Origin: Pseudomonadota bacterium
GTDB lineage: Archaea; Thermoplasmatota; SW-10-69-26; JACQPN01; JAJPHT01
Length of the DNA stretch: 23,085 nt
Direction: 5' to 3'
Assembly (NCBI GenBank): GCA_021325135.1
Contig: JAJPHT010000049.1
Span: forward strand, 1-23,085
Shown: positions 1-21,062 of the stretch, piece by piece
How positions within the stretch are numbered: the first letter of the stretch is position 1
Layout of the letters: each line of letters starts with the position of its first letter
Program-made: the position numbers and the translations under genes
The notes under the pieces: model-generated
Told to the model about the DNA's origin: nothing
The model's database searches: none
Seen by the model: the letters and a program-made list of their open reading frames with translations, nothing else

Positions 1-1
1 G

Positions 2-901
2 AACTCCGGAGTGACGATCTCCTACACCGGCGGCGGCTCGGGCAAGGGCCGCGGCGACATCACCAAGAACCTCGTGGACTTCGCGGGCAGCGACGCGCCC
101 ATGAGCGCGGCCGAGCAGGCCAACGCCACCGATGTGCTCCACGTCCCCGTGGCGGCCGGCGGCGTGGCCATCGCGTACAACGTCCCCGAGGTCGGGACGA
201 CGCCCCTGAAGTTCGACGGCGACACGATCGCGAAGATGTTCATGGGCACCATCACCAAGTGGAACGATCCCGCGCTCCAGGCGCTCAACCCCGGCGTCAG
301 CCTGCCCGCGCAGGACATCGCCGTCGTGCACCGCAGCGACGGCAGCGGCACCACCGCGACGTTCACCGACTACCTCGTGAAGGTCAGCCCTGACTGGGCT
401 TCGAAGGTCGGCAAGGGCAGCACGGTCAACTGGCCCGTGGGCACCGGCGCCAACGGCAACCCGGGCGTCGGCAGCCAGGTGCAGCAGATCCCCTACACGG
501 TGGGCTACGTCGGCGCGGAGTGGGGCAACGTCAGCCAGCTCCAGACGGGCGTCGTCAAGAACAAGGCGGGCAGCTTCGTCGCGCCCACGCCCGACAAGGT
601 GAGCGCCGCCCTGGACGCCGCCGTCGGCGCGGGCGCCTTCGACGAGAACCTCAAGGGGAGCGCCACCGACCAGGCCGGCGCCAACAGCTACCCCATCACG
701 GCCGTGACGTGGATGCTCGTCCACCAGCACCAGGCCGACGCCGCCAAGGGCAAGGCGCTGGCCGCGTTCGCGTGGTACGTGCTCCACGACGGGCAGGCGT
801 TGAACAACGGGCTCAACTACGCGCCCGTCCCCGCCAGCATCGTCGCCAAGGCCGAGGGGCTCGTCAACAAGATGGACTCCAACGGGCAGCCCCTCCGCTG
901 A
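2..901 (+). CDS. pstS: Phosphate ABC transporter substrate-binding protein PstS (5'-truncated by window edge)
   Basis: Motifs YTGGGSGKG, VDFAGSDAPM, HRSDGSGTT and YPIT; the frame is open to the window start; first gene of a pstCAB-phoU run. Confidence 0.96.
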   Translation, partial: NSGVTISYTGGGSGKGRGDITKNLVDFAGSDAPMSAAEQANATDVLHVPVAAGGVAIAYNVPEVGTTPLKFDGDTIAKMFMGTITKWNDPALQALNPGVSLPAQDIAVVHRSDGSGTTATFTDYLVKVSPDWASKVGKGSTVNWPVGTGANGNPGVGSQVQQIPYTVGYVGAEWGNVSQLQTGVVKNKAGSFVAPTPDKVSAALDAAVGAGAFDENLKGSATDQAGANSYPITAVTWMLVHQHQADAAKGKALAAFAWYVLHDGQALNNGLNYAPVPASIVAKAEGLVNKMDSNGQPLR

Positions 902-902
902 G

Positions 903-1853
903 GTGAGCGCCCTGGGACGCCGGGAGCACGCCGTGGACAGGACGACCCGCTACGCGCTGGGCGCCCTCGCCGCGGCCATCGCGCTCGTCTTCGCCGCGAT
1001 CCTCGGCGTCCTCCTCTCCCACTCCGTGGAGGCCCTGCGCTACAGCGGCTTCCGCCTGGTGACGGGCACCACGTGGGACCCCGTGAACGGGTCGTACGGC
1101 GCGTGGGGCTTCGTCTTCGGCACGCTGGTCACGAGCCTGCTGGCCCTGCTCCTCGCGGTGCCCGTGGGCATCGCGGTCGCGCTCTTCCTCACCGAGCTTG
1201 CCCCGCGCTGGCTGCGCGCGCCCATGGGCATCCTCGTCGAGCTTCTCGCGGGCGTGCCCAGCCTCGTGTACGGCATGTGGGGCGTCTTCGTCATGGCGCC
1301 CCTCCTGCGCAAGCCCGTGGAGCCGTGGCTCGACTCCCACGTCGCCCACATGTGGGGCCACCCGATCCCCGTGCTATCGTTCCTCTTCAGCGGCCCCAAG
1401 ATCGGCCTGGGCTTCCTGCTGGCGGGCATCGTGCTCGCGATCATGATCCTCCCCACCATCGTCGCCATCTCGCGCGACGCCCTCCTCGCGGTGCCGCGCC
1501 TGGAGCGCGAGGCCGCCTATGCTCTCGGCGCCACGCGCTGGGAGGTGGCGCGCAACGCGCTGCGCAGCGCGAAGGCCGGCGTCTTCGCCGCGAGCACGCT
1601 GGGCCTGGGCCGCGCGCTGGGCGAGACCATCGCCGTGACGCTGGTCATCGGCAACGTCGCCACCGTCGCGCTGCGCCTCTTCGCGCCGGGCCAGACCATC
1701 GCGTCGACCCTCGCGACGCAGCTCAACGAGGCGACCGAGCCCCTCTTCGTGAGCAGCCTCATCGCGCTGGCGCTCATCCTCTTCGTGCTGACGCTCCTCG
1801 TGAACCTGGGCGCGCGCCTCGCCATCGAGCGCCCCTGGAGGCGGTCCGCGTGA
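903..1853 (+). CDS. pstC: Phosphate ABC transporter permease PstC
   Basis: Hydrophobic protein with [30 protein letters not shown] (EAA loop) and [10 protein letters not shown]. Confidence 0.96.
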
Positions 1854-2689
1854 CGTCCTTCTGGCGCAAGGCGCGCAACCACTCGTTCACCCTCCTCGCG
1901 GGCCTCGCGTGCGCGCTGGCCCTCGTCCCCCTGGTGAGCATCACCTGGTACGTCGCGGCGCGCGGCATCCCGGCCCTCTCGTGGAGCTTCCTCACCCACG
2001 CGCCCACCGCGCCCGACGACCCGGCCTCGGGCATCGGCCCCGCCCTCGCGGGAACGGGGCTCCTGGTGCTCCTGGCGGGCGTCCTGGGCATCCCCCTGGG
2101 CATCGCGGGGGGCATGTGGCTCGCGGAGCACGGGCGCAACGCGCGGGGCAGCGCGTTCCGCATGGTGCTCGACGCCATGGCCGCGACGCCCAGCATCGTG
2201 ACGGGCATCTTCGTCTTCACCATCGTCGTCATCCCGCAGGGGCACTTCAGCGCCTTCGCGGGCGGCATCGCCCTCGCGCTCATGATCGTGCCCGTGGTCG
2301 CGCGCACCACGGAGATCGCGCTGCGCGGCGTCCCCGACTCCTTGCGCGAGGCCGGCGTCGCGCTGGGCGCCACCCACACGCGCACGCTCTTCCGCGTGGC
2401 GCTCCCCGCCGCGCGCACGGGCATCCTCACGGGCTCCATCCTCGCCACCGCGCGCGTCGCGGGCGAGACGGCGCCCCTCCTCTTCACCGCGCTCTACGCG
2501 CAGCAGTGGGTCCACAGCCTGGGCAAGCCCATCGCGGCCCTCCCCACGCTCATCTTCAACTACATCCAGCAGCCCTACCCGTCCCTGCAGCAGCAGGCGT
2601 GGGGCGCGGCGTTCCTCCTCTTCGTCCTCGTCTTCGGCGCCAACATCGTCGTGCGCGTGTCGTCCCACCTCCGGAGCCGCCAACCATGA
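1850..2689 (+). CDS. pstA: Phosphate ABC transporter permease PstA
   Basis: GTG at 1850 overlaps the pstC stop (GTGA). Motifs [39 protein letters not shown] and AWGAA. The longer ORF-track start at 1073 lies inside pstC. Confidence 0.95.
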
Positions 2690-3441
2690 AGACCATCATC
2701 GAATCCAAGGGGCTCCGCGTGGCCTTCGGCCAGAAGGAGGTGCTCCACGGCGTCGACCTCGCCATCCCTGAGGCCGAGATCACCGCCATCATCGGGCCCT
2801 CCGGCTGCGGAAAGAGCACGTTCCTGCGCGCGCTCAACCTCATGCACGACCTCACGCCCAGCGCGCGGATCACGGGCGAGGTCGTCTTCGACGGGCGCAA
2901 CATCTACGACCCGGGCGTCGACCCCGTGGACCTGCGGCGCCGCATCGGCATGGTCTTCCAGAAGCCCAACCCCTTCCCCACCATGAGCGTGTTCGACAAC
3001 GTGGCCTTCGGGCCGCGCCTGCTGGGCCTCACGCGCGACGAGGTCCACAAGCGCGTCGAGGAGAGCCTCAAGAAGGCCGCCATCTGGGAGGAGACGAAGG
3101 ACCGCCTCCGCGCGCCGGCCACCGACCTCTCGGGCGGCCAGCAGCAGCGCCTCTGCATCGCGCGCGCCCTGGCGGTCAAGCCCGAGATCCTCCTCCTCGA
3201 CGAGCCCACCAGCGCGCTCGACCCCATCGCCACGGCAAAGATCGAGGACCTCCTGGGCGAGCTGAAGAAGGAGGTCACCGTGGTCATCGTCACGCACAAC
3301 ATGCAGCAGGCCGCGCGCGCCAGCGACAACACGGCGTACTTCCTCAACGGCGACCTCGTCGAGCACGGGCCCACCGAGCGGCTCTTCGAGAACCCCAAGG
3401 ACGAGCGCACCGAGGCGTACATCACCGGGAGGTTTGGATGA
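2686..3441 (+). CDS. pstB: Phosphate ABC transporter ATP-binding protein PstB
   Basis: ATG at 2686 overlaps the pstA stop (ATGA). Walker [46 protein letters not shown] and C-terminal YITGRFG. Confidence 0.97.
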
Positions 3442-4100
3442 TGGAGAGGACGTTCCACAAGGACATCGAGGACCTGGGCGCCAGGGTGGTCCGCATGGCG
3501 GAGCTGTCGCGCAAGAGCGTGTTCGACGGCGTCGAGGCCTTCGCCGCGCTGGACGCGGAGGCCGCGCGGCGCGTCATCGCGTTCAACCAGGAGATCAACA
3601 AGGCCGACGTGGGCATCGAGGCGCGCGCCCTGGACCTCATCGCGCTCCACCAGCCCATGGCCAAGGACCTGCGCGCGCTGGGCGCGTCGCTGAAGATCAT
3701 CACGTACCTCGACCGCATCGGGCGCTACGGGTACGACATCGCCAAGGCCACGCTCGCGCTGGAGGGCAAGAGCCACGTCCGCAGGCTCGTGGGCATCCCC
3801 ATCATGCGCGACAAGGCGCTCGCTCTCCTGGACAAGAGCGTGGACGCGTTCCGCGGGCGCGACGCCGCGAAGGCGCGCGAGGTGCAGCCCGCCGACGACG
3901 AGGTGGACGCGCTCTACGAGCAGATCTTCCGCGAGTGCCTCACCTACATGATCGAGGAGCCGCGCACCATCACGCAGTGCACGCAGTACATCCTCGTCGC
4001 GCGCCACCTGGAGCGCGTGGGCGACAACGCGGGCAAGATCGCCGAGAAGACGATCTACATGGTGACGGGCGAGCGCCGCCTCGACCCCTCCGTAGCGTGA
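3438..4100 (+). CDS. phoU: Phosphate signalling complex protein PhoU
   Basis: [21 protein letters not shown] and LERVGD..KIAE repeat motifs; ATGA overlap with pstB. Confidence 0.95.
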
Positions 4101-8417: not shown

Positions 8418-8719
8418 TCGGGCCGCTCCACGCGGAGGCTCAGCTCGGTCATCGTCGCGCGGAAGTAGCGCAACCCCTTCTCGCGCCTCTCCTCCAGCAG
8501 GGGCATCATCTTCTGGATGGCGACGCTCACGGTGCCGGGCGCCTCGCCGATGCGCTCCGCGATCTCCGAGAGGTACATCCACCCTTCCCCCTTGCGGCGG
8601 GCCCGCGCCAGCTCGCGCAGGATGGCGACGTTCACGCTGGCGCCCAGCATGCGGACGAGGCGGGCCACCTCGTCGGCCTCGCGGGTGAGGAGCCACTCGT
8701 CCTTCGCCATGCTTCCCAT
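8414..8719 (-). CDS. Small winged-helix (ArsR-like) transcriptional regulator
   Basis: NVAILREL...MYLSEIAERIGEAPGTVSVAIQKM..LLEERREKGLRYF is an HTH plus wing. Minus-strand TTCAAG (8746-8741) lies 21 nt before the ATG at 8719 (alternative start 8710). Confidence 0.85.
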   Translation of the reverse strand: MGSMAKDEWLLTREADEVARLVRMLGASVNVAILRELARARRKGEGWMYLSEIAERIGEAPGTVSVAIQKMMPLLEERREKGLRYFRATMTELSLRVERPD

Positions 8720-8740
8720 GGAGCCGATGGAGTCGCGCCA

Positions 8741-8798
8741 CTTGAAGGTATTGCGAGTACGTGAACATTGGATTTTGAAAAATCGCAAAATACTAAAT
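8741..8798. promoter_or_regulatory. AT-rich divergent promoter region with nested inverted repeats
   Basis: Minus-strand TTCAAG; plus-strand CGCAAAA-TACTAAAT (BRE/TATA-like); palindrome GATTTT-GA-AAAATC at 8771-8784; GTATTGCGA..TCGCAAAATAC. Confidence 0.6.
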
Positions 8799-8810
8799 GC
8801 GCGGCGCCAT

Positions 8811-8923
8811 TGCGCCCCTTGCGGGAACCCGATCCGGGGCTTGCCCCGGAGAGGCCGGGAGGCAGGAGCGCAAGCTCCACCCTGGGCCGCCTCCCACCCA
8901 CGCCCCTTCGGTCCGCGGGCGCA
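8811..8923 (+). ncRNA. Candidate structured small RNA of unknown family
   Basis: Closing stem TGCGCCC/GGGCGCA, inner GCGG/CCGC and CCGA/TCGG pairs, hairpin TCCGGGG-CTTG-CCCCGGA, and stem GGGAGGC/GCCTCCC carrying GGAGC-GCAA-GCTCC. TATA-like box just upstream; no credible ORF. Confidence 0.5.
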
Positions 8924-9098
8924 CACCACGCGGAGCCATTCTTGTCAGGGGGTCCCCCGCGCGGTCCGCGCCTCGCTCGCGCGGGCCACCTTCCTTCCAC
9001 GCGGAGCGCCGCGGGCCGTTGATCCTTTCTCCGCCATCCTTCAGCCGGCGGTCCAACAACGCTTTATCTCCCTTCCCGGGTCGAGCGGCCGAGAAGCC

Positions 9099-10040
9099 AT
9101 GCTTCCCCGTCTCGTCGCCCTCGCGCTCGTGGCCGCGGCCCTCGCGGCCGGCTGCATCCAGCCCTCGGACCCCTCCGTCCAGGACTCGCCGCCCCCCAAC
9201 ACGCACAACTCGGGGGGCAACATGACGGCGAGCGAGCAGCGCACGGACTCCACCTGCGCGGGGAACGGCGGGGACAACGCCTTCTGCGCCTCGCGCACCG
9301 TCTCCGTCTCGGGCTCCCTCAGCGGCGTCGCCAAGATGGACGTCGACCTCAAGACGGTCAACGGCCACGTCAACGTCAAGCAGGGCGGCACGGGCTCGTG
9401 GAGCCTCGTCGCGGTGCTGAAGGCCTACGGCGCCACGCAGGAGGAGGCCAACGCGAACCTGGAGCGCGTCGTCTACACCTGGCGCCACACCGATGGCACG
9501 TCGCACTTCGTCCAGGCCGAGGCGCGCCAGCCCGACGACTGCCGCTGCAACGCGCAGGCCAGCATCGACGCGACGCTCCCCTCGGACGTCGTCATGGTGG
9601 TGACCACGGAGACGACCAACGGCGCCATCAACGTCCAGGGCAAGACCGACGGCCTCTCGGCGCAGTCCACCAACGGCGCCGTCTCCATCAACGCCGACGT
9701 GACGCAGGTCTCGCTGGAGACGACCAACGGGCAGATCGACGCGACGCTGCGCCCCACGGCCAGCGGCCGCATCGGCGCGGAGACCACCAACGGCCAGGTC
9801 CAGCTTCGCCTCCCCGAGGACGCGACGCACGGCTACGACGTCACGGGCCGCACGACCAACGGCGTCGTGGAGATCGGCCTCAAGGACGGCGACCTCGGCC
9901 CCTGCCCGCAGGGCTCGCAGTACTACACGCCCCCCTGCAACGAGCGCACGTTCAAGACGCACGGCTTCGACCAGCGCGCGATCCAGGAGATCGTGAGCGC
10001 GACGGGGACCAACGGCCGCATCGTCGTCGACGCCATGTGA
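9099..10040 (+). CDS. DUF4097 (adhesin-like beta-strand repeat) lipoprotein, paralog 1
   Basis: Signal peptide with lipobox LAAGC; seven x-T-x-NG repeats (e.g. ETTNG); L.LPED motif; TTTAT box at 9063-9067. Confidence 0.85.
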   Translation: MLPRLVALALVAAALAAGCIQPSDPSVQDSPPPNTHNSGGNMTASEQRTDSTCAGNGGDNAFCASRTVSVSGSLSGVAKMDVDLKTVNGHVNVKQGGTGSWSLVAVLKAYGATQEEANANLERVVYTWRHTDGTSHFVQAEARQPDDCRCNAQASIDATLPSDVVMVVTTETTNGAINVQGKTDGLSAQSTNGAVSINADVTQVSLETTNGQIDATLRPTASGRIGAETTNGQVQLRLPEDATHGYDVTGRTTNGVVEIGLKDGDLGPCPQGSQYYTPPCNERTFKTHGFDQRAIQEIVSATGTNGRIVVDAM

Positions 10041-10049
10041 GGTGGGATC

Positions 10050-11000
10050 GTGCGCGCCCTCCTTCCCCTCGTGGCCCTCGCCCTCCTCGCGGCCGGCTGC
10101 ATCCAGCCCGACGCGCCCTCCGCGACGGAGAAGGCCACCGGCTCGCCCCCCTCCAGCGCCACGGCCGCCATGACCGGCGAGGAGTCCAGCAAGGACTCCA
10201 CCATGCCCTGCCTGGAAGGCGTGGGCGTCAGCGGGACCGCCGTGCCCGGCGCCTTCTGCGCGGTCCGCACCGTCACCGTGAGCGGCACGATCTCGGGCAT
10301 CGCGGAGCTTCCCGTGGACCTCTCCACCTTCAACGGCCCCATCGCGGTGAAGGAGTCCAGCGAGGGCGCCTGGAGCCTCGTCGCGACCCTCACCGCCCGC
10401 GGCACGACGCCCGACGAGGCGACGGCGAATCTCGCCAACGTCTGGCTGGAGTGGGACCACGCGGACGGGGGCGCCCACCGCGTCCACGCTCGAGCCAAGG
10501 TCAACGGCTCCAACGACGGCGGCTACGCGGCCTCGCTCACGCTGGCGCTCCCGCCCTCCGTCGCGACGCGCCTCGCGGCCTCCGACGGCTCGGGCGGCAT
10601 CAGCGTGGAGGGGGGCAACGCCGAGGCGCTCTCCCTCTCCACCGGCTCGGGCGCCATCTCGGCGAAGACGCGCGTCGTCGACGCGACGCTCCACACCGGA
10701 AGCGGCTCCGTCGACGCGACGCTGACGCCCACCGCCGAGGGGAAGATCGCCGTCTCCACCGGCAGCGGCAGGGTGTCGCTCCGGCTCCCCGAGGACGCGG
10801 AGCGCGGCTACGCGCTCACGGCCTCCACGGGCAGCGGCTCCATCGACGTGGGCCTCAAGGACGGCGACCTCACGGCCTGCCCCCAGTACGGGCCGTGCAA
10901 CCACCGCGAGTTCCACACCAGCGGCTTCTCCTCGCGCGCGATCCGGTCCACCGTCTCCCTCTCCACGGGCAGCGGCGGCGTGTCCGTCCAGCCCGCGTAG
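10050..11000 (+). CDS. DUF4097 (adhesin-like beta-strand repeat) lipoprotein, paralog 2
   Basis: LAAGCIQP lipobox; STGSG repeats; colinear with paralog 1 (AFCA.RTV.VSG, WSLVA.L, LRLPEDA..GY, GLKDGDL..CPQ, PCN.R.F.T.GF); SD GAGGTG upstream. Confidence 0.85.
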   Translation: MRALLPLVALALLAAGCIQPDAPSATEKATGSPPSSATAAMTGEESSKDSTMPCLEGVGVSGTAVPGAFCAVRTVTVSGTISGIAELPVDLSTFNGPIAVKESSEGAWSLVATLTARGTTPDEATANLANVWLEWDHADGGAHRVHARAKVNGSNDGGYAASLTLALPPSVATRLAASDGSGGISVEGGNAEALSLSTGSGAISAKTRVVDATLHTGSGSVDATLTPTAEGKIAVSTGSGRVSLRLPEDAERGYALTASTGSGSIDVGLKDGDLTACPQYGPCNHREFHTSGFSSRAIRSTVSLSTGSGGVSVQPA

Positions 11001-12849: not shown

Positions 12850-13064
12850 GCCGCCCGGGCTGGGGGCCCCCTTCATTCCGTTCCTGGTACATGGGGCGGT
12901 GTGACGCTGGAGCCGCGAAAAAGGCCGTTTTGATGTCGTGAATCGCATCTAAGTCGTACCCATACGATATGACGTGGGCCCCGGTCACGAATCCCAAAGG
13001 TATTTCCTCTGCGTGGCGTAAGGACGACCCTCCACCTGGGCCCCGCGCCCGGGGGGTGTCCCTT

Positions 13065-14399
13065 GTGAAGCCCGAGATCCGCGTCCCCATCCCCGGCCCC
13101 AACGCGACCAAGGTCGTCGAGCGCGACCACCGCGCGCTGTTCACCACCACCAAGACGGCCCCCATCGTGGCCGCCAGCGCCAAGGGCGTCTGGGTCACCG
13201 ACGTGGACGGCAACCGCATCCTGGACTTCACCTCCGGCGTGGGCGTCGTGAACTGCGGCTACTCGCACCCCAAGATCGTGAAGGCCATCCAGGACCAGGC
13301 GGCGAAGCTCATCCACTTCGCGGGCACCGACTATTATTACGACTCGCAGGTGGACCTCGCCGAGCGCCTGACGCAGATCGTCCCCGGCCCGTGGGCCAAG
13401 AAGGTCTTCTACACCAACAGCGGCACCGAGTCCAACGAGGCCGCCATCAAGATCGTGAAGGCGCACCACCCGGACCGCCAGCAGTTCCTCGCCTTCCAGG
13501 GCGCCTTCCACGGACGCACCATGGGCAGCCTCGCGTTCACCGCCAGCAAGCCCGTGCAGAAGCGGGGCTTCTTCCCGTGGATGCCCGGCGTCACGCACGT
13601 CCCCTTCCCCAACCCGTACCGCAACGCGTGGGGCATCGACGGCTACGAGCACCCCGCGGAGCTGGCCAATCGCGCGCTGGACTGGATCGAGACGCTCTTC
13701 AGCACGAGCCTGCCCCCCGAGGACGTGGCGGGCCTCTGGTTCGAGCCCGTACAGGGCGAGGGCGGCTACGTCGTGCCCCCCAAGGAGTTCTACCCCAAGC
13801 TCGCGAAGCTCGCGCGCGACCACGGCATCCTCCTCGTCGCCGACGAGGTGCAGTCCGGCTTCGGGCGCACGGGCAGGATGTTCGCGCAGGAGCACTTCGG
13901 CGTCGCGGGTGATGTCACCTGCCTCGCCAAGGGCATCGCCAACGGCATGCCCATGGGCGCCGCCGTCGCCCGCGCGGACCTGGACTTCGACAAGAACGGC
14001 CGCCACAGCAACACCTACGGCGGCAACGTCCTGGCCACCACCGCAGGCCTCGCCACGCTGGACGTGCTCCAGGGCGAGGGGCTCGTGGAGAACAGCGCCC
14101 GCGTGGGCGAGCATCTCCACAAGCGCCTGCGCGAGCTTCAGCAGAAGCGCGAGGTCATCGGCGACGTGCGCGGCCTGGGCCTCATGCAGGCCATGGAGTT
14201 CGTCAAGGACCGCCGCACCAAGGCCGTCGACCCCGCGTTCAAGGACCGCGTCGTGGACGAGGCCATGAAGCGCGGGCTCGCGCTCCTCCAGTGCGGCAAG
14301 GCCGGCGTGCGGTGCATCCCGCCGCTGTGCATCACCGAGGCCGAGGTGGACGCGGGCGTCGAGGTGCTCGACCAGGCCATCCGCGCGGCCCTCGCGTGA
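13065..14399 (+). CDS. Class III PLP-dependent aminotransferase (4-aminobutyrate/acetylornithine aminotransferase family)
   Basis: DVDGNRILDF, NSGTESNEAAIK, AFHGRTMG, EPVQGEGG, ADEVQSGFGRTG, LAKG (PLP Lys), NTYGGN and DVRGLGLM. GTG at 13065 after GGGGTG. Substrate cannot be determined. Confidence 0.93.
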   Translation: MKPEIRVPIPGPNATKVVERDHRALFTTTKTAPIVAASAKGVWVTDVDGNRILDFTSGVGVVNCGYSHPKIVKAIQDQAAKLIHFAGTDYYYDSQVDLAERLTQIVPGPWAKKVFYTNSGTESNEAAIKIVKAHHPDRQQFLAFQGAFHGRTMGSLAFTASKPVQKRGFFPWMPGVTHVPFPNPYRNAWGIDGYEHPAELANRALDWIETLFSTSLPPEDVAGLWFEPVQGEGGYVVPPKEFYPKLAKLARDHGILLVADEVQSGFGRTGRMFAQEHFGVAGDVTCLAKGIANGMPMGAAVARADLDFDKNGRHSNTYGGNVLATTAGLATLDVLQGEGLVENSARVGEHLHKRLRELQQKREVIGDVRGLGLMQAMEFVKDRRTKAVDPAFKDRVVDEAMKRGLALLQCGKAGVRCIPPLCITEAEVDAGVEVLDQAIRAALA

Positions 14400-14402
14400 G
14401 GC

Positions 14403-15143
14403 TCAGAGCGTCACGCGGCACGCCGCCGTCGCGCCGCAGAGCGCCGTGACCTCGACGTAGCCGGTGACGTTGCTGGGCAGCGGGGTGCTGGTGCTGCCCA
14501 CCGTGGCCCACGGAAGCGTCTCCGGCGTGCCCGAGGGGTCGATGCCCCCCGGCGGCGTCGCGCAGAAGGGGCCCAGGACGCACACGGGCGCGGGCGCCGG
14601 CTCCACGGAGGGGAGGTCGACCTCCTTCCAGCCCGGCGTCACGGTGGGCGTCGGGACGCTGAAGGGTCCGTCGCGCACGTCCAGGCAGGCGTTGGTGAGC
14701 GCCGAGGGCTCGTGCTCGAAGCAGAGCGGGCCGTGGCACTCCACGGTGGCGTCGAACGAGACGGCCTTGACGCCCTGCACGTAGGCCTCCAGGTGCGCGG
14801 TGCCCGCGTCGCAGTCGATCCGGTCCACCACGATGGGCATGGTGTTGGGCGCGCAGGCGCCCACGCCGCCCGTCTCGTTGAACCGCACCTGGCCGTCGGA
14901 GCCCTGGACCTCCACGCCGTTGGCGCGGACCTCGAAGGAGGCCATGCGGGTGCCGGAGGAGTCGAGGGTGGCCTTCAGCGCCGCGGGCTCGTGGCCCACG
15001 CAGGTCGTCCCCCAGATGGAGACCCAGAGGTCCGCCGTGCCGGTGGCGTAGACGGGGTCGAAGGGGGTCGTCGCGTCGGCCCCGTGGAGCGCCAGGGGCG
15101 CGGCGAGGGCACTCAGGGCAAGCAGGATCGTGCGGTTCTTCAT
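14403..15143 (-). CDS. Secreted Cys-rich hypothetical protein (246 aa)
   Basis: MKNRTILLALSALAAPLA signal peptide; 10 Cys; beta-rich N-terminal half and Pro/Thr-rich C-terminal half. Confidence 0.75.
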   Translation of the reverse strand: MKNRTILLALSALAAPLALHGADATTPFDPVYATGTADLWVSIWGTTCVGHEPAALKATLDSSGTRMASFEVRANGVEVQGSDGQVRFNETGGVGACAPNTMPIVVDRIDCDAGTAHLEAYVQGVKAVSFDATVECHGPLCFEHEPSALTNACLDVRDGPFSVPTPTVTPGWKEVDLPSVEPAPAPVCVLGPFCATPPGGIDPSGTPETLPWATVGSTSTPLPSNVTGYVEVTALCGATAACRVTL

Positions 15144-15269
15144 GGGAATCTCTTCGGGCGGGGGGCCGCCGACGTCTCCATCCCCCGGGGGGACTTGGGC
15201 TTGGGCAAGCGTTCGCCTGCCTCGATCCGTCCGGCTTTATGCGAGCAGCGCCCGATGGCGCGGACCGCG

Positions 15270-15974
15270 ATGCCCGACGACTCCGAGGAGACGCACGAGG
15301 AGCTGGCCACCACGCTGGCCGCCCTGGCGAACGCCACGCGCCTCGCCATCCTCAAGGCCGTCGTCGTGCCGCGGCCGCTGCACCTCATCCGCGTGCGGAC
15401 GCTCTCGGAGCGCGGCGTGGAGGGCCCGCGCCTCGCCAGCCGCCAGGCGGTGAAGGAGCACCTGGACCGGCTCGTGCAGCACGGCATCGTCCACACGCGT
15501 GAGGGGGGGCAAGAGGGCGTGGAGTACGTGGTCAACCACCGCCGGCTCTTCCAGATCTCCGAGGAGGTGCGCGACCTCGCCTCGGTCCGCATGAGCGCGG
15601 ACGTGGTGGAGGAGCCCACCATCCCCGCGGCGCAGCCCGGCGGCGCGCGCCCCGAGCCCGGGCCGCGGCTCCTCCTGGTCAAGGGGCTGCGCGAAGGGCG
15701 GACCTTCGAGCTTGGCCACGTCGCGCCGGGGGAGCCCCTCGTCCTGGGGCGGCGCGACCGCTCCGAGGTGCCCCTCTCCTACGACCCCTACGTGTCGAGC
15801 CGCCACGCGCTGCTGGCGCGCCAGGGCGAGGGGTTCACGCTGGAGGTGGCGCCCGAGGCGACGAACCCGGCCTACGTCAACCTCGTGGCGCTCCAGCCCG
15901 GCGAGCCGCGGCCGCTGCGCCACGGCGACGTCATCCACCTGGGGCGGAGCGTCCTCGTGTTCTGGGAGCGATGA
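15270..15974 (+). CDS. ArsR-like winged-HTH plus C-terminal FHA domain transcriptional regulator
   Basis: LAALANATRLAIL...SRQAVKEHLDRLVQHGIV (wHTH); LVLGRR..DPYVSSRHA..ATNPAYVN..LRHGDVIHLG (FHA with G-R, S-x-x-H and N). TTTAT at 15236-15240 favours the ATG at 15270 (alternative 15255). Confidence 0.88.
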   Translation: MPDDSEETHEELATTLAALANATRLAILKAVVVPRPLHLIRVRTLSERGVEGPRLASRQAVKEHLDRLVQHGIVHTREGGQEGVEYVVNHRRLFQISEEVRDLASVRMSADVVEEPTIPAAQPGGARPEPGPRLLLVKGLREGRTFELGHVAPGEPLVLGRRDRSEVPLSYDPYVSSRHALLARQGEGFTLEVAPEATNPAYVNLVALQPGEPRPLRHGDVIHLGRSVLVFWER

Positions 15975-18159
15975 CTTCGAAGGCCTCCAGGCACGCTCCG
16001 GCCTCGGGGCGCGCCGCGGGGTCGCGGTCGAGCATGCGGCGCAGAAGACCGGCAAGCCCGGCGTGGGGCCCCCCTTGGGCCAGCGCGTCCAGCCGCTCGG
16101 GGAACGCGCCGGGCGCCGCGCCGTCCAGAAGGTCCAGCGCGACGACGCCCGCGGAGTAGACGTCGGAGCGTGGCGAGGGCGCGGCCCCCGCCAGCACCTC
16201 GGGCGCCGCATAGCGCGGCGTGAAGCGCGGCTCGACGCCCGCCTCCGGCGCGCCCGGGAGCGTGACGGAGCGGAGGATGCGCGCGCTGCCGAAGTCCGCG
16301 AGCTTGGCGCCTCCCGAGGAGAGGAGGACGTTGCTGGGCTTCACGTCGCCGTGGACGATGCCCACCTCGTGGACCGCGGCGAGGCCGGCCAGGACATCGC
16401 GCGCGATGCCGCGGGCCCTCTCGGGCTCCACCTCGCGGCGCGCGCGCAGCAGGTCCGCCACGGTGCCGCCCTGCGCCAGCTCCATGACGAGGTAGTGCCG
16501 CCGGCCGTAGTCCACCACGTCGTGGACGGTCACGACGTTGGGGTGCGAGAGCGCCCCCGCCGCGCGGGCCTCCGCCAACGCCTGGGAGACGTCGCCCGCG
16601 GCGGGCTCCTCGTCGTACTCCTTCACCGCCACGTCGCGCTGGAGCCTTTCGTCGCGGGCGAGGAACGTGCGCCCCGTGGCGCCCTTGCCCAGCGTCGCGC
16701 GGATGCGATAGCGCGATGCCAGCAGGAGCCCTTCGCGCAGCGGCACGGCCCGCTCCGCGAGCCCGCGCGCGAGGCGGACCTCCTCGTCCGAGAGCCCCAG
16801 GTCCCGGCGCAGCCGCGGCAGGTCGCCCCCGGAGGAGCCCTCCAGCGAGCGCTCCAGCGCGGCCTGGTACACCTCCAGCCGGCGCGGGCGCGTGGCGTCC
16901 TCGGCGAGCGCCAAGGGGAGGGCGCGCTCCACCGCCGAGAGGGCGAGGAAGCCCAGGAGCGCCAGGAGGAACGCCAGGAGCACGCCGCCCAGCGGGCCTC
17001 CAGAGAAGAGGGACGGGTCGGCGCTCACGAGGAGGAGCGCCAGGATGCCGCCGCCCACGAGGACGCCTGCCGTCGCCAGCGCCCGCAGCCCGGCGCGCTG
17101 CGCGCGCGGGGGGAGGCCGAAGAGCTGGAAGCGCAGGATGGAGTAGCCCACGAGGCCCGCGAAGACGAGCCAGCGCGAGGAATAGCGCGCCCGCTCCAGC
17201 GTGAGGAGGACGTACCCGCCTGGCGTCGCGGCGTCGAGGGAGACCCCGCGGTGGGCCAGCGCCGAGAGCGTCGCCCACACGGGCGTAGGGGCCCAGACCA
17301 CCAGCGCGAGGAGCCCGAAGCCCTGGAGGATCCGCCGCAGCGCGCGCCGCCCGCGGGGCCGGGCCTCCAGCGGCGTCCGACGCAGGAGGAGCGAGCCCGC
17401 GGCGAGCGTCGCGGCCACCGTCAGCAGGACCTCCAGGACGCGCACGAAGAGAAGCTGGTACGCAGGGCCCACGGGCGGCGAGATGGCGCGCACCAGCTCC
17501 GCGGAGGTCTCCAGCGAGAGGCCGAAGCGCGAGAACACGGCGATGCCCAGCCCCACGAGGACGAGGTGCCCCTGGCGCTGGCGGATGGCGCTCGTCGCGG
17601 AGGCGTGGTCCTTCCAGAGGAGCACGAACGCCGCGGCGTAGGCTCCCAAACCATACGCGAGGAGCAGGAGCGAGGGGCCGGTGCTCCCGAAGGGCCCCAC
17701 CTCGACGCCCAGCTCCCCGATGATGGGCAGGCGGATGGGCAGCAGGAGATCGGCCGCGAGGAACGTCGCGGCGCCGCCCGCGCAGAGGGCCAGGGCGCGC
17801 CGCGCCCGCGACGAGGGCGCGCAGAACGCGACGGCGAACGCCAGGAGCGCCAGCGGGTTGAGGACCTGCCCCGCGATGCGGAGCGCCTCCAGACGCGGCA
17901 GCCACGTCTCCTGGAGGGGCGTCGGCGTCGCGGGCACGCCCGCGCGGTTCCAGCCGGTGCCCAGCGTGACGAGGTAGGCGGAGTCGAGGACGTACCCCAC
18001 CGCGAGGAGGCCCAGGAACGCCGCGAAGAGGAGGTTCCGGCTGTCGCTGCGGCGGGCCGCGACGACGAGGGCCGCCACCACCAGCAGCACGACCCCAAGG
18101 AAGACGTCGGGCGCGTTCGACAGGTACGAGGAGAAGGAGGCCAAGGCGCAGCGTGCCAT
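15931..18159 (-). CDS. Multi-pass membrane (about 11 TM) receptor-like Hanks-type Ser/Thr protein kinase
   Basis: About 11 hydrophobic segments including YSILRFQLF; kinase motifs LGKGATG, VAVK, HPNVVTVHD, HGDVKPSN, ADFG, TPRYAAPE and SDVYSAG. The start may be TTG at 18144, given GGAGG spacing. Confidence 0.92.
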   Translation of the reverse strand: MARCALASFSSYLSNAPDVFLGVVLLVVAALVVAARRSDSRNLLFAAFLGLLAVGYVLDSAYLVTLGTGWNRAGVPATPTPLQETWLPRLEALRIAGQVLNPLALLAFAVAFCAPSSRARRALALCAGGAATFLAADLLLPIRLPIIGELGVEVGPFGSTGPSLLLLAYGLGAYAAAFVLLWKDHASATSAIRQRQGHLVLVGLGIAVFSRFGLSLETSAELVRAISPPVGPAYQLLFVRVLEVLLTVAATLAAGSLLLRRTPLEARPRGRRALRRILQGFGLLALVVWAPTPVWATLSALAHRGVSLDAATPGGYVLLTLERARYSSRWLVFAGLVGYSILRFQLFGLPPRAQRAGLRALATAGVLVGGGILALLLVSADPSLFSGGPLGGVLLAFLLALLGFLALSAVERALPLALAEDATRPRRLEVYQAALERSLEGSSGGDLPRLRRDLGLSDEEVRLARGLAERAVPLREGLLLASRYRIRATLGKGATGRTFLARDERLQRDVAVKEYDEEPAAGDVSQALAEARAAGALSHPNVVTVHDVVDYGRRHYLVMELAQGGTVADLLRARREVEPERARGIARDVLAGLAAVHEVGIVHGDVKPSNVLLSSGGAKLADFGSARILRSVTLPGAPEAGVEPRFTPRYAAPEVLAGAAPSPRSDVYSAGVVALDLLDGAAPGAFPERLDALAQGGPHAGLAGLLRRMLDRDPAARPEAGACLEAFEVIAPRTRGRSAPGG

Positions 18160-18173
18160 TCCTCCCAGGGGGT

Positions 18174-18240
18174 CAAAGGTCCTTTGGAGCCGCGTCGGCT
18201 CCGGAGGCTCCGCGCGGGGGCACCGCCAATGGCTTTAAGA
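18174..18240. promoter_or_regulatory. Divergent promoter between the kinase and the kelch protein, with palindromes
   Basis: CAAAGG-T-CCTTTG (18174-18186); GGAGCCG-CGT-CGGCTCC (18186-18202); CTTTAAGA (18233-18240) reads TATA-like on both strands. Confidence 0.5.
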
Positions 18241-18272
18241 GCGAGGCCCCCCACTCCGCGCCGGTTGTTGCC

Positions 18273-21062
18273 ATGGCCCGAGGTCCCCCCCTCGTCCTCG
18301 CCGCCCTCCTTCTCCTGAGCGCGCTCCCCCTGGCGGCGCCTCCCGCGTCGGCCGCGGAGGCCAAGGCGCTGGACCACGGCCTGCCGCAGCCCATGGTGGG
18401 CGTGGGCGCGGTGCAGGTGGGCGGAAGCGTGTACCTCCTGGGCGGCCGCTCGGCCGACGGCACGTACAGCAACCAGATCGTCAAGTACGACCCCGCCACC
18501 GGCGCGAACTCCACCGTGGCGACGTTCCCCGACGTGAGCATCGCGCCGGGCTCCTCGGAGCGCTACGCGGGCTCGGTGGCCGCGCACGGCACCAAGGTCT
18601 ACTACTTCGGCGGCGCCACCAGCGTCCAGGGCAACGTGGGTGGCCAGCCCGCGAAGCTCCCCAAGCCCATCCCCGACATCGTGGTCTACGACACGGCGAC
18701 GCCCGACAAGGCGCCCTACGTGCTCTCCTCGCAAGTGCGCGCCTGCCCGCCGTCCAACCCCTCGTGCGCGTCGCTTCCGGGCGAAGGCGCGTGGGGCATG
18801 TCCCTCGCGGTCGTGGGCGACGTGGCCTACCTCTTCGGCGGCTTCACGCTGGACATCTCCACCTACAACTTCGAGCGCCACGACTGGATCCTCGCCTTCG
18901 ACATGGGCACGGAGACGCTCACTCAGCTCTCCGCCACGCTGCCCTACCCCGTGCAGGACGCGGGCGCGGCGTTCGTGAGCGCGCCCTCGCAGCAGGTCTA
19001 CCTCTTCGGCGGCCTCGCCAACAACGGCACCGCGAACCTCTGCCCGGGACGCTACGTCACCAACGACACCACCGGCGAGCAGGAGTACCAGCGCCCCTCG
19101 CTCTGCCTCACGGACCAGATCATCCGCTGGGACCCGCAGCTCCAGCTCAACGCCGAGGTCGCGGACGCGAAGCTCCCCTACCGCGTGCAGTTCGCCTCCG
19201 CGGGCTCCGTGCGCGGCACCAAGGCCTACGTGCTGGGCGGCCTCCTCGTGGACGGCACCGCCTCGCAGGCCATCCTGGAGTTCAACCCCTCCTCCACGAC
19301 GCCGCTGCGCACCCTCACGCCGCGCCTGGACCCCGGCCTCTTCGGGAGCGGGCTCACCGCGGGCGACACCGCGCTCACCCTCTGGGGCGGCCGCGTCGGC
19401 GACCCCAACCAGCTCACCGGCGACGTCGTGCGCTTCGACCCCAACCCCACGGCGCCCTTCCCGCCCGCGGGCGCCACCGCCGCGCGCACCGGCTCGGGCA
19501 TCCACCTCACGTGGCAGCCGCCCACCTACGACGGCGACTCGCCCGTCACGGGCTACCGCGTCTTCCGCGCGGGGGCAGACGGCAACCAGACGCTCCTCAC
19601 GCCGCAGCCCGTCACGGGCCTCTCCTACGACGACGCGTCGGTGAAGCCGGGTGCCAACTACACGTACCGCATCACGGCGCGCAACTCCATCGGCGAGAGC
19701 GATCCCGCCACCGTCAGCACCGCGACGGGCACGACGCCCCCGGGCCCCGTCTCCTCCTTCTCTGTCTACCCCGGCAACGGGCAGGCCGTCCTCAAGTGGG
19801 CGGCGCCCCTGGAGACCGGCGGCGCTGATATCACCGGCTATCACGTCTACTGCAACTGCAGCGACCGGCCCGTGAGCGTCGACGCCTCCACGCGGACCTA
19901 CGCGTGGACCGGCCTCTCCGACGGCGTCGACTACGGCTTCACCCTCCGCGCCGTGAACGCCAAGGGCGAGGGCGCCGCGTCGCCCACGCTCCACGCCATG
20001 CCCGCGCCCGTGCCCGACGCGCCCGTGAGCGTCACCGCGCAGCCCGCGGGCGGCAGCGGCAGCGACGCGACGGGCATCGCCGTCTCGTGGGTCGGGCCCT
20101 CAAGCTCCGTGGACCGCTTCCTGGTTCTGCGCGGCGCGGCCCCCGACGCCATCACGCAGACCGTGGCGAACCTCACCGCGGACCAGTCCTCCTTCACCGA
20201 CCAGGCCGTGGCGCAGGGCGGCACGTACTACTACGCGGTCGTCAGCGTGAACGCGGCCGGCGCCAGCCCGCCCACCGTCTCCGACGCGGTCGCGCTGGTG
20301 GACCCGCCCGGAGCGCCCACCGCGGTCCAGGCCACCGGGCTCGAAGGGCTCGTGCAGCTGACGTGGAGCGCGCCGCAGGACCTCGGCCACGCGACGCCCT
20401 CGGCCATCACCTACGTCGTCACGCGCACCTCGCCGGGCTCCACGCTGGGGAAGATCATCTCGCCCCCGGGCCTCAAGGACACCGCGTTCGCGGACCGCAC
20501 CGCGACGCCCGGCCTCACCTACTCGTACACCGTCACGGCGCAGAACCCCGTGCGCGGCACGCCCAGCGCGGCCGTCACCGCCGTGGCCAAGGTCGTCACC
20601 AACAAGCCGCCCGTCGCGGCGCTCACCATCCTCCCCGCCATCGCGACGGCGGGCGACCCCGTGACGCTGGACGCCACGCAGTCCCACGACCCGGACGGCT
20701 CCATCGAGCAGTACGCCTTCGACTTCGGCGACCACAGCGACCCGGTCCGCTCGGCCAACGCCACCGTGACGCACCACTACGCGCAGAACGGCACCTACGA
20801 GGCGACGGTCGTCGTCACCGACAACCGCGGCAACGTCAGCGCGCCCGTCTCGGCCCGCGTCATCGTGGGCACGCTGGTGGGCAGCGGCGACGGCAGCGGC
20901 GAGGTGGGCGGCGCGGGCAGCACGCCCGGCTCCTCCAGCACGGGGGCGACGCCGGCGCGGCCCGGCTCCAGCTCGCCCAAGATCCCCGCCCCTGGCGTGG
21001 GCCTCGTGGCGTTGGCCGCCGTGGCGCTGGCCCTGGCGACGCGCCGTCACCTCCGCCGGTGA
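18273..21062 (+). CDS. Cell-surface protein: signal peptide, kelch beta-propeller, four FN3 domains, PKD domain, Gly/Ser linker, C-terminal IPAPG-TM-basic anchor
   Basis: Six VYLLGG/YYFGG/AYLFGG/VYLFGG/AYVLGG/TLWGG kelch blades; four W.PP...Y.Y...A.N FN3 repeats; NKPPVA..LDATQSHDPDGSI.QYAFDFGD (PKD); ATG at 18273. Confidence 0.92.
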   Translation: MARGPPLVLAALLLLSALPLAAPPASAAEAKALDHGLPQPMVGVGAVQVGGSVYLLGGRSADGTYSNQIVKYDPATGANSTVATFPDVSIAPGSSERYAGSVAAHGTKVYYFGGATSVQGNVGGQPAKLPKPIPDIVVYDTATPDKAPYVLSSQVRACPPSNPSCASLPGEGAWGMSLAVVGDVAYLFGGFTLDISTYNFERHDWILAFDMGTETLTQLSATLPYPVQDAGAAFVSAPSQQVYLFGGLANNGTANLCPGRYVTNDTTGEQEYQRPSLCLTDQIIRWDPQLQLNAEVADAKLPYRVQFASAGSVRGTKAYVLGGLLVDGTASQAILEFNPSSTTPLRTLTPRLDPGLFGSGLTAGDTALTLWGGRVGDPNQLTGDVVRFDPNPTAPFPPAGATAARTGSGIHLTWQPPTYDGDSPVTGYRVFRAGADGNQTLLTPQPVTGLSYDDASVKPGANYTYRITARNSIGESDPATVSTATGTTPPGPVSSFSVYPGNGQAVLKWAAPLETGGADITGYHVYCNCSDRPVSVDASTRTYAWTGLSDGVDYGFTLRAVNAKGEGAASPTLHAMPAPVPDAPVSVTAQPAGGSGSDATGIAVSWVGPSSSVDRFLVLRGAAPDAITQTVANLTADQSSFTDQAVAQGGTYYYAVVSVNAAGASPPTVSDAVALVDPPGAPTAVQATGLEGLVQLTWSAPQDLGHATPSAITYVVTRTSPGSTLGKIISPPGLKDTAFADRTATPGLTYSYTVTAQNPVRGTPSAAVTAVAKVVTNKPPVAALTILPAIATAGDPVTLDATQSHDPDGSIEQYAFDFGDHSDPVRSANATVTHHYAQNGTYEATVVVTDNRGNVSAPVSARVIVGTLVGSGDGSGEVGGAGSTPGSSSTGATPARPGSSSPKIPAPGVGLVALAAVALALATRRHLRR

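Follow-up and report, generated by a model that had tools for sequence, protein, structure and literature searches.

In a 23,085-nt stretch of archaeal DNA (contig JAJPHT010000049.1 of assembly GCA_021325135.1, positions 1 to 23,085 of the forward strand; hereafter the window), two genes that meet tail to tail encode a polytopic membrane protein kinase and a putative transcription factor that joins a winged helix-turn-helix (wHTH) to an FHA domain. The regulator gene (15270–15974, forward strand, 234 aa) and the kinase gene (15931–18159, reverse strand, 742 aa) converge and share exactly 44 nt of 3′ coding sequence (15931–15974). Upstream of the regulator, across a divergent intergenic region at 15144–15269, lies a reverse-strand gene for a secreted Cys-rich protein (14403–15143; 246 aa with a signal peptide and 10 Cys). 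Beyond the kinase start, across 18160–18272, a forward-strand gene (18273–21062) encodes a kelch-FN3-PKD surface protein of 929 aa, with a signal peptide, Kelch, fn3 and PKD domains and a C-terminal transmembrane anchor. The original prediction for this stretch had named these four genes, both intergenic regions, the 44-bp overlap and the export of the two flanking proteins, and all were recovered at the positions and with the features it gave. It read the central pair as a phosphothreonine analogue of a two-component system that controls the secretome. The host is an archaeon: its genome encodes TBP, a family otherwise matched only in four archaeal control genomes, and the named NCBI relatives of the regulator are labelled ‘Candidatus Thermoplasmatota archaeon’. 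The domain was assigned from TBP because the assembly holds no archaeal small-subunit rRNA.

The kinase falls into three parts. Residues 1–410 (16930–18159, reverse strand, as for the other two parts) form a membrane sensor region of 11 helices joined by short loops, residues 411–479 (16723–16929) a conserved helical juxtamembrane linker with the pattern R-x-x-E-V-Y-R-A-A ... L-x-x-L-R-x-x-L-G-L, and residues 480–735 (15955–16722) a Hanks-type Ser/Thr catalytic domain (Pfam Pkinase, PF00069, E 5.3e-42; 144.5 bits against a cut-off of 31.7, residues 484–683). A hydropathy scan gave 11 transmembrane segments with loops of at most 36 aa. Lys and Arg account for 19 of the 62 residues in the inner loops and 10 of the 124 in the outer ones, which places the kinase domain in the cytoplasm. 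The AlphaFold2 model (mean predicted local distance difference test, pLDDT, 85.8) likewise has 11 long helices before residue 440; the last membrane helix continues as one long helix to residue 439, and the linker helices (389–439, 447–454 and 458–471) lead into the catalytic domain. These results agree with the predicted fusion of a sensor of about 11 transmembrane segments to a cytoplasmic Hanks kinase. By structure, the catalytic domain is closest to the mycobacterial kinases PknA (Foldseek TM score 0.79) and PknB (1mru; Z 25.6, root-mean-square deviation (rmsd) 2.9 over 240 residues).

The catalytic set comprises K513, E530, H603-G-D605, N610, D622-F-G, T647 and P653-E654, and so includes the ATP-binding Lys, the helix-C Glu, the catalytic Asp and Asn and the DFG and APE positions. 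When 29 kinases of the family are aligned, K513, E530, H603, D605, N610, D622, G624, T647, P653 and E654 are invariant. The window kinase reads H-G-D and lacks the Arg before the catalytic Asp that defines RD kinases, the class activated by loop phosphorylation; family members carry either HRD or HGD, and its sequence marks it as a non-RD type that is still inside the Hanks superfamily. With every catalytic residue kept, the enzyme is predicted to be catalytically complete, and not an inactive kinase of the kind that would have spoken against a signalling role.

The membrane region is rare and divergent. It carries a conserved motif (S-x-R-W-L-x-F ... L-R-Y-Q-x-F-D-L), and a search of 1.84 billion representative proteins returned no more than 37 matches to the region at E ≤ 1e-3, nearly all of them 650–760 aa long. 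No Pfam membrane family matched the window kinase at E ≤ 1, and structural searches with the whole model (Foldseek against the PDB and a wider PDB search) gave hit lists filled with kinase domains and were uninformative on the membrane fold. Among the 29 aligned family kinases, 4 match HisKA_7TM (PF16927), with a best E of 5.1e-11; the paralogous kinase on contig C23 matches both PF16927 and PF07695 (7TMR-DISM_7TM) at about 3e-4, below their cut-offs, and an atlas lead for the region scored 0.84, below its trust level. Through this transitive link, the membrane region is probably a divergent relative of bacterial 7TM sensor regions.

The partner protein comprises an ArsR-like winged helix (residues 1–105), a linker (106–132) and an FHA domain (133–232; Pfam FHA, PF00498, E 2.3e-11, 44.4 bits against a cut-off of 20.7). 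In the public annotation its gene begins at an ATG at 15255 (239 aa); the TATA-like element GGCTTTATG at 15233–15241 suits a near-leaderless start at 15270 better. The predicted retention of the phosphothreonine-binding residues is borne out: the window regulator has G160-R161, S176-x-x-H179 and N199, and in an alignment of 84 non-identical family members G160 and S176 are present in all 84 and R161 and N199 in 83 each. The FHA domain, with the 11-strand sandwich fold, superimposes on those of DgcB, OdhI, GarA and FhaA with Foldseek TM scores of 0.85–0.90. A family profile matches chains of OdhI, GarA, FhaA, EmbR and, weakly, ArnA through its C-terminal part, and chains of ArsR, NolR, HlyU and NmtR through its N-terminal part; among the structures matched, no solved chain covers both domains. 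The AlphaFold2 model (pLDDT 92.4, predicted TM score 0.78, linker pLDDT 83–85) suggests that the domains are held in a fixed arrangement. Its winged helix seems to follow the ArsR order, with helices at 4–19, 22–30 and 58–70, a wing at 74–88 and a final helix at 90–104. Across the family, the recognition-helix residues R58, Q59 and H64 show little or no variation. Residues 1–110 of the translation contain no Cys, so the regulator is not a classical metal sensor; the NCBIfam metalloregulator model reaches 22 bits against a cut-off of 55.

In the linker of the regulator, Thr117 (codon 15618–15620, forward strand), in the local motif E-E-P-T-I-P, is Thr in 84 of the 84 aligned family members, while at the other positions of linker 109–127 no residue reaches 36 of 84 in any column. 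The final helix of the ArsR-type fold, used for dimerisation in the ArsR family, ends 13 residues before it. By analogy with the bacterial proteins GarA and OdhI, we read Thr117 together with the FHA domain as a putative phospho-switch of the GarA/OdhI kind grafted onto an ArsR-type DNA-binding domain, with Thr117 as the predicted phospho-acceptor.

We then asked how regularly such a regulator stands beside such a kinase. A Pfam scan of the genome found FHA at 7 loci and Pkinase at 13, and a profile built from the paralogs added an eighth wHTH-FHA protein with a more diverged FHA domain. All 8 match the family profile over their full length; 6 of the 7 Pfam-FHA proteins also match HTH_20 or other winged-helix models, the copy on contig C21 matching FHA only. 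Seven of the 8 genes adjoin a polytopic Hanks kinase, where chance would place about 2% of genes within 1.5 kb of a kinase (about 13 loci in 3.77 Mb). The same holds in five related genomes (31 of 39 wHTH-FHA genes adjoin a Pkinase match), giving 38 paired genes out of 47 in the six genomes together. Co-occurrence and synteny, which had been named as a check on the prediction, are thus conserved. Running the wHTH-FHA profile on 201 genomes of the phylum, we found the family in every one of the 20 genomes sampled from the class and in 3 of the remaining 180 or so, at 1 to at least 12 copies per positive genome.

Arrangement and phylogeny were compared in 37 loci from the six genomes, each with both genes. 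The pairs are convergent in 21 loci, tandem with the regulator first in 9, tandem with the kinase first in 6 and divergent in 1; pairing therefore survives rearrangement. Maximum-likelihood trees of the 37 regulators and of the 37 kinase domains have 11 of 34 bipartitions in common, and for 20 of the 37 pairs the nearest neighbour comes from the same locus in both trees. Shuffling partners within genomes gave means of 0.45 bipartitions and 1.6 neighbours, and 0 of 5000 shuffles reached the observed values. Such congruence of the inferred phylogenies shows that the pairs are duplicated and passed on as units, without exchange of partners.

The overlap seen in the window is itself common: 15 of the 21 convergent pairs share overlapping 3′ coding ends, of 4 to 96 nt or more. 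The mRNA ends of these pairs would be complementary, whether for mutual antisense control or just through compaction. In the six kinase-first loci (L054 on contig C54 of genome G007, L061, L066, L070, L074 and L076), the start of the regulator gene coincides with the kinase stop or lies a few nt from it. One-frame fusions of kinase and regulator were not seen, although no systematic search for them was made. At another locus (L003, C12:24761–27496), a paralogous module converges on a gene for a 911-aa multi-PAS histidine kinase, which may be a contact point between the two kinds of signalling or a coincidence.

Given these patterns, we favour as fairly probable a reading in which kinase and wHTH-FHA protein signal as cognate partners through a Thr117-FHA phospho-switch, with about eight such pairs in the genome. 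The 11-helix membrane region, with no large outside domain, would sense a signal at the level of the membrane or a small ligand, and the conserved helical linker would relay it to the cytoplasmic non-RD kinase. The regulator’s FHA domain would dock on a phosphothreonine of the autophosphorylated kinase, which would then phosphorylate Thr117 in the regulator’s linker. Phosphorylated Thr117 could be bound by the FHA domain of its own chain, as in GarA and OdhI, or by the domain of another subunit, as with DgcB and Chk2. Since Thr117 follows the dimerisation helix by 13 residues, FHA binding there would alter dimer geometry and DNA binding, and hence transcription. The most likely target would be the divergent region at 15144–15269, a candidate site of autoregulation or target control common to the regulator and the secreted Cys-rich gene. 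The genome also has 36 receiver-domain matches, so modules of this kind would add to His-Asp signalling and not replace it.

Several observations weigh against this reading. Linkage alone would give congruent trees, and congruence speaks for long-kept pairing, not for interaction; moreover, the correlation of patristic distances (Mantel-type) is modest (Spearman 0.17, P 0.043), and we lean on the agreement of clades and nearest neighbours in its place. Both partners of the window pair sit on long branches of their trees and fall in non-matching clades, with weak support either way. The position of His179 is Asn in 56 of the 84 family members. HTH_20 reaches 17.6 bits on the window regulator, under its cut-off of 27. 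Despite its 13 Pkinase loci, the genome (94% complete) yielded no phosphatase of the PP2C, PP2C_2 or SpoIIE kind that could reset the switch. Finally, no operator was identified, and 15144–15269 holds only weak or G/C-run palindromes. The closest relative retrieved from 5.8 billion proteins shares 44% identity with the window copy. The single regulator protein, used as a query for related loci, retrieved only an unrelated bacterial FHA match.

Of the other explanations, the one that fares best takes the FHA domain as an adaptor only. It would dock on the autophosphorylated kinase and so keep the regulator at the membrane, off the DNA, with Thr117 a structural and unphosphorylated residue. The conserved phosphothreonine-binding residues, the activation-loop Thr residues common among the family kinases and the membrane location of the kinase all accord with such sequestration, and the linker is modelled with enough confidence that Thr117 could be a packing residue. 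However, a lone invariant Thr amid varying neighbours is usually a modified site and not a packing one, and in GarA, OdhI and DgcB, the closest relatives of the FHA domain, that domain in each case binds a phosphothreonine of the protein itself. We consider sequestration rather unlikely.

The relation might also run the other way, with the wHTH-FHA protein acting on the kinase as a scaffold or as a regulator of its activity or localisation, like FhaA or FipA with mycobacterial kinases, and the winged helix serving for protein contacts. It is in line with this that the best NCBIfam match of the FHA domain is FhaB/FipA, although far under its cut-off (36 against 125 bits), and that the helix-turn-helix of the window copy is weak, with an insertion (residues 31–57) before the recognition helix, at the place expected for the first helix of the motif. 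Yet the paralogs score 37–42 bits with HTH_20, above its cut-off, the family profile matches the DNA-binding ArsR, NolR and HlyU chains, and R58, Q59 and H64 of the recognition helix hardly vary; we consider a scaffold improbable.

We give still less weight, as very improbable, to a conflict or defence module, such as an abortive-infection kinase like PD-T4-6 or a MADS kinase. The PADLOC mad6 and PD-T4-6 models do match the kinase (1e-54 to 1e-16), the window copy is an indel between congeners (see below), and the family is fast-diverging with many paralogs. The matches are, however, confined to the generic catalytic domain (residues 475–735), and the 141 bits of mad6 fall short of its NCBIfam cut-off, 460. 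A polytopic sensor and a wHTH-FHA partner are both lacking from PD-T4-6 and MADS, the neighbours here are housekeeping genes, and presence in every sampled genome of the class in 1–12 or more copies resembles a signalling family. Lastly, chance adjacency of two functionally unrelated genes, for which nothing speaks beyond the general point that gene order alone proves nothing, is rejected by the pairing counts (38 of 47 against about 2%), by the persistence of pairing through four arrangements and by the congruent partner trees.

The proposed switch has partial counterparts among known systems. In PknH/EmbR of Mycobacterium tuberculosis, as here, the gene of a membrane Hanks kinase adjoins one for a regulator that ends in an FHA domain. 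In EmbR this domain reads a phosphothreonine of the kinase and the protein is phosphorylated, steps that in the window pair are predicted. The EmbR FHA domain (2fez) matches the family profile at E 4.3e-7. The differences are nevertheless considerable: EmbR has a SARP/OmpR-type winged helix with a BTAD domain and not the ArsR-type fold (no Trans_reg_C or BTAD Pfam match was found in the window regulator or in the other six Pfam-scanned paralogs), and it has no invariant linker Thr comparable to Thr117. PknH has one transmembrane helix and a folded outside sensor, compared with 11 helices here, and the PknH/EmbR system is bacterial and has not multiplied into a large set of cognate paralogous pairs. 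GarA of M. tuberculosis, which works with PknB and PknG, and OdhI of Corynebacterium glutamicum have the solved FHA domains closest in sequence (E 3e-13 to 1e-11). They have in common with the window regulator a conserved Thr in a flexible segment before the FHA domain, which in their case is phosphorylated by a kinase and then bound by that domain, and which we predict to behave likewise here. Unlike the window regulator, they lack a DNA-binding domain, their output is the inhibition of metabolic enzymes, and their acceptor motif ETTS lies at the N-terminus, whereas Thr117 is a lone Thr between two folded domains. DgcB of Bdellovibrio bacteriovorus gave the best Foldseek match of the FHA domain (TM score 0.88–0.89, rmsd 1.3–1.6), and according to the titles of its structure entries, its FHA domain binds its own phosphorylated tail. 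DgcB differs in its GGDEF cyclase output, in being bacterial and in having no linked polytopic kinase.

The logic is that of two-component systems with 7TM sensors, which also consist of a polytopic sensor-kinase and an adjoining DNA-binding partner in many paralogous pairs. Those work by His-Asp phosphotransfer, whereas here Ser/Thr phosphorylation would be read by an FHA domain; Pfam found no HisKA, HATPase or REC domain in the kinase or the regulator. Most archaeal response regulators are not known to have DNA-binding outputs. Within the archaea, the Sulfolobales proteins ST1565/ST0829 and ArnA-ArnB offer a precedent, in which a Hanks kinase phosphorylates an FHA protein that affects promoter binding and gene expression (PMC5007285; PMC6509490; PMC10470591); in that work, ArnA acts as a DNA-damage repressor. 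ArnA has a zinc finger and not a winged helix, its partner is the vWA protein ArnB, and the Sulfolobales kinases are neither adjacent cognate partners nor polytopic sensors. The ArnA FHA domain (5a8i) matches the family profile weakly (E 0.0023), and no vWA protein occurs among the window neighbours. In the literature searched, which left most subscription journals aside, regulators of the ArnA/ST0829 type are the only archaeal FHA regulators described, and they differ in architecture, as the original prediction had stated for ArnA. No paper there describes a polytopic kinase with a wHTH-FHA partner, and ‘HTH-FHA’ returned nothing.

The kinase/wHTH-FHA pairs thus look like an undescribed phosphothreonine counterpart of the two-component system. 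Of the original prediction, the pairing is sustained, the two genes being conserved together, co-inherited and intact in their key residues; control of the secretome is sustained only in part, as described below. Archaeal Ser/Thr phosphorylation is known mainly from a few Sulfolobales proteins, and the present family adds, in one class of Thermoplasmatota, up to a dozen or more gene pairs per genome that join a receptor-like membrane kinase to a putative DNA-binding phosphothreonine reader. The single invariant threonine makes the mechanism directly testable. If the reading is true, it would add a third general design to the two-component and one-component systems by which prokaryotes control genes across the membrane, and would offer a compact set of kinase, FHA and DNA-binding parts for synthetic signalling.

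To place the module in its genomic setting, we compared synteny with congeners. The aminotransferase gene at 12969–14399 has orthologs in four of them, of which three (G007, G098 and G082) have enough contig for comparison. In these three genomes the kelch-FN3-PKD gene comes next after the aminotransferase gene, 74–748 bp away, and is followed by a small open reading frame and a synthetase gene, as in the window; none of the three genes that intervene in the window has a homolog between the two. In the alignment with G007, similarity begins at about 18221 and includes the box TTTAAGAG (18233–18240) of the kelch gene. The stretch from 14400 to about 18220 is therefore a three-gene indel, which is most simply explained, given this gene order, as an insertion in the window lineage. 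Its right end would be the kinase upstream region at 18160–18220, which carries a palindrome CAAAGG-T-CCTTTG at about 18174–18186.

In the light of this comparison, the kelch gene and its putative ancestral promoter (18221–21062, forward strand) are to be taken as an old neighbour with its own promoter, outside the module. The divergent promoter that the kelch and kinase genes seemed to have in common is a by-product, because the cassette was inserted beside the older kelch promoter. The kelch gene had been proposed as a part or target of the pathway, and this is not supported, with no module between it and the aminotransferase gene in three congeners. No flanking repeats were found at the cassette ends, where the best match was of 9 nt, nor any tRNA or integrase there. 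A DNA search found no cassette ortholog in related genomes, only 65–70% matches to kinase domains. At the cassette position, G007 carries a gene for a different secreted protein of 190 aa with few Cys (L082 2511–3083).

The secreted Cys-rich protein, the third gene of the cassette, matched no family in Pfam, NCBIfam or PADLOC. Within the genome it belongs to a family of 10 members (nine paralogs) with a common C-terminal Cys motif, G-Y-x-E-x-T-x-L-C ... C-x-V-x-L, encoded by DNA that is 77–83% identical over about 60 nt; such C-terminal ends lie at 14403–14465 in the window and at C6:53382, C21:19015, C36:151939, C49:35967 and C49:112719. Two of the paralogs adjoin the C21 module, where the mirror-image arrangement recurs with a homologous secreted protein, and 7 of the 10 members stand away from any module. 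More generally, secreted Cys-rich genes occupy 5 of 14 module flanks in this genome, against a background of 6% (binomial P about 1e-3); the background is about 210 of 3572 called genes by a crude rule of a signal peptide and at least 6 Cys. Such a flank occurs at 9 of 16 loci in the window’s genus and at 1 of 21 in four other genomes. The link between Cys-rich gene and module is thus real, if loose and lineage-specific. The claim of secretome control is accordingly half upheld for the Cys-rich gene, which is in the cassette and enriched at module flanks but tied to them almost only in one genus, and falls for the kelch gene.

The three cassette genes could further form a self-contained circuit of ligand, receptor and regulator, with private channels arising by duplication and divergence. 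The secreted Cys-rich protein would be an extracellular signal or co-receptor for the 11-helix kinase, which would switch the regulator, and the loop would be closed by the regulator acting at the divergent promoter from which the secreted gene is read. We think this unlikely; if true, it would be an archaeal analogue of the Cys-rich-peptide/receptor-kinase signalling of plants or of peptide quorum sensing. Of other candidate control elements, the palindrome GCAGGG-N4-CCCTGC occurs in neither intergenic region and is no commoner in the window than in shuffled sequence (8 matches, against a shuffle mean of 5.3), and a sigma-70 and terminator scan of the window gave nothing, these models being irrelevant for an archaeon. 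Many secreted Cys-rich genes of the genome stand in tandem arrays of genes of 60–100 aa (for example C7:53405–54376, C15:218835–220593 and C39:81165–82618).

The window has a G+C content of 70–78%, and its coding frames stand out by a third-position G+C of at least 0.9. Its remaining genes are a pst-phoU operon and genes for a Usp protein, two DUF4097 proteins, the class-III aminotransferase and a class-II aminoacyl-tRNA synthetase. The operon (1–4100) is a complete and ordinary phosphate-uptake operon encoding PstS, PstC, PstA, PstB and PhoU, with overlapping stop and start codons. The two neighbouring DUF4097 (‘toastrack’) proteins, of 507 and 316 aa, are encoded at 8517–11000, and the second also weakly matches DUF7330.

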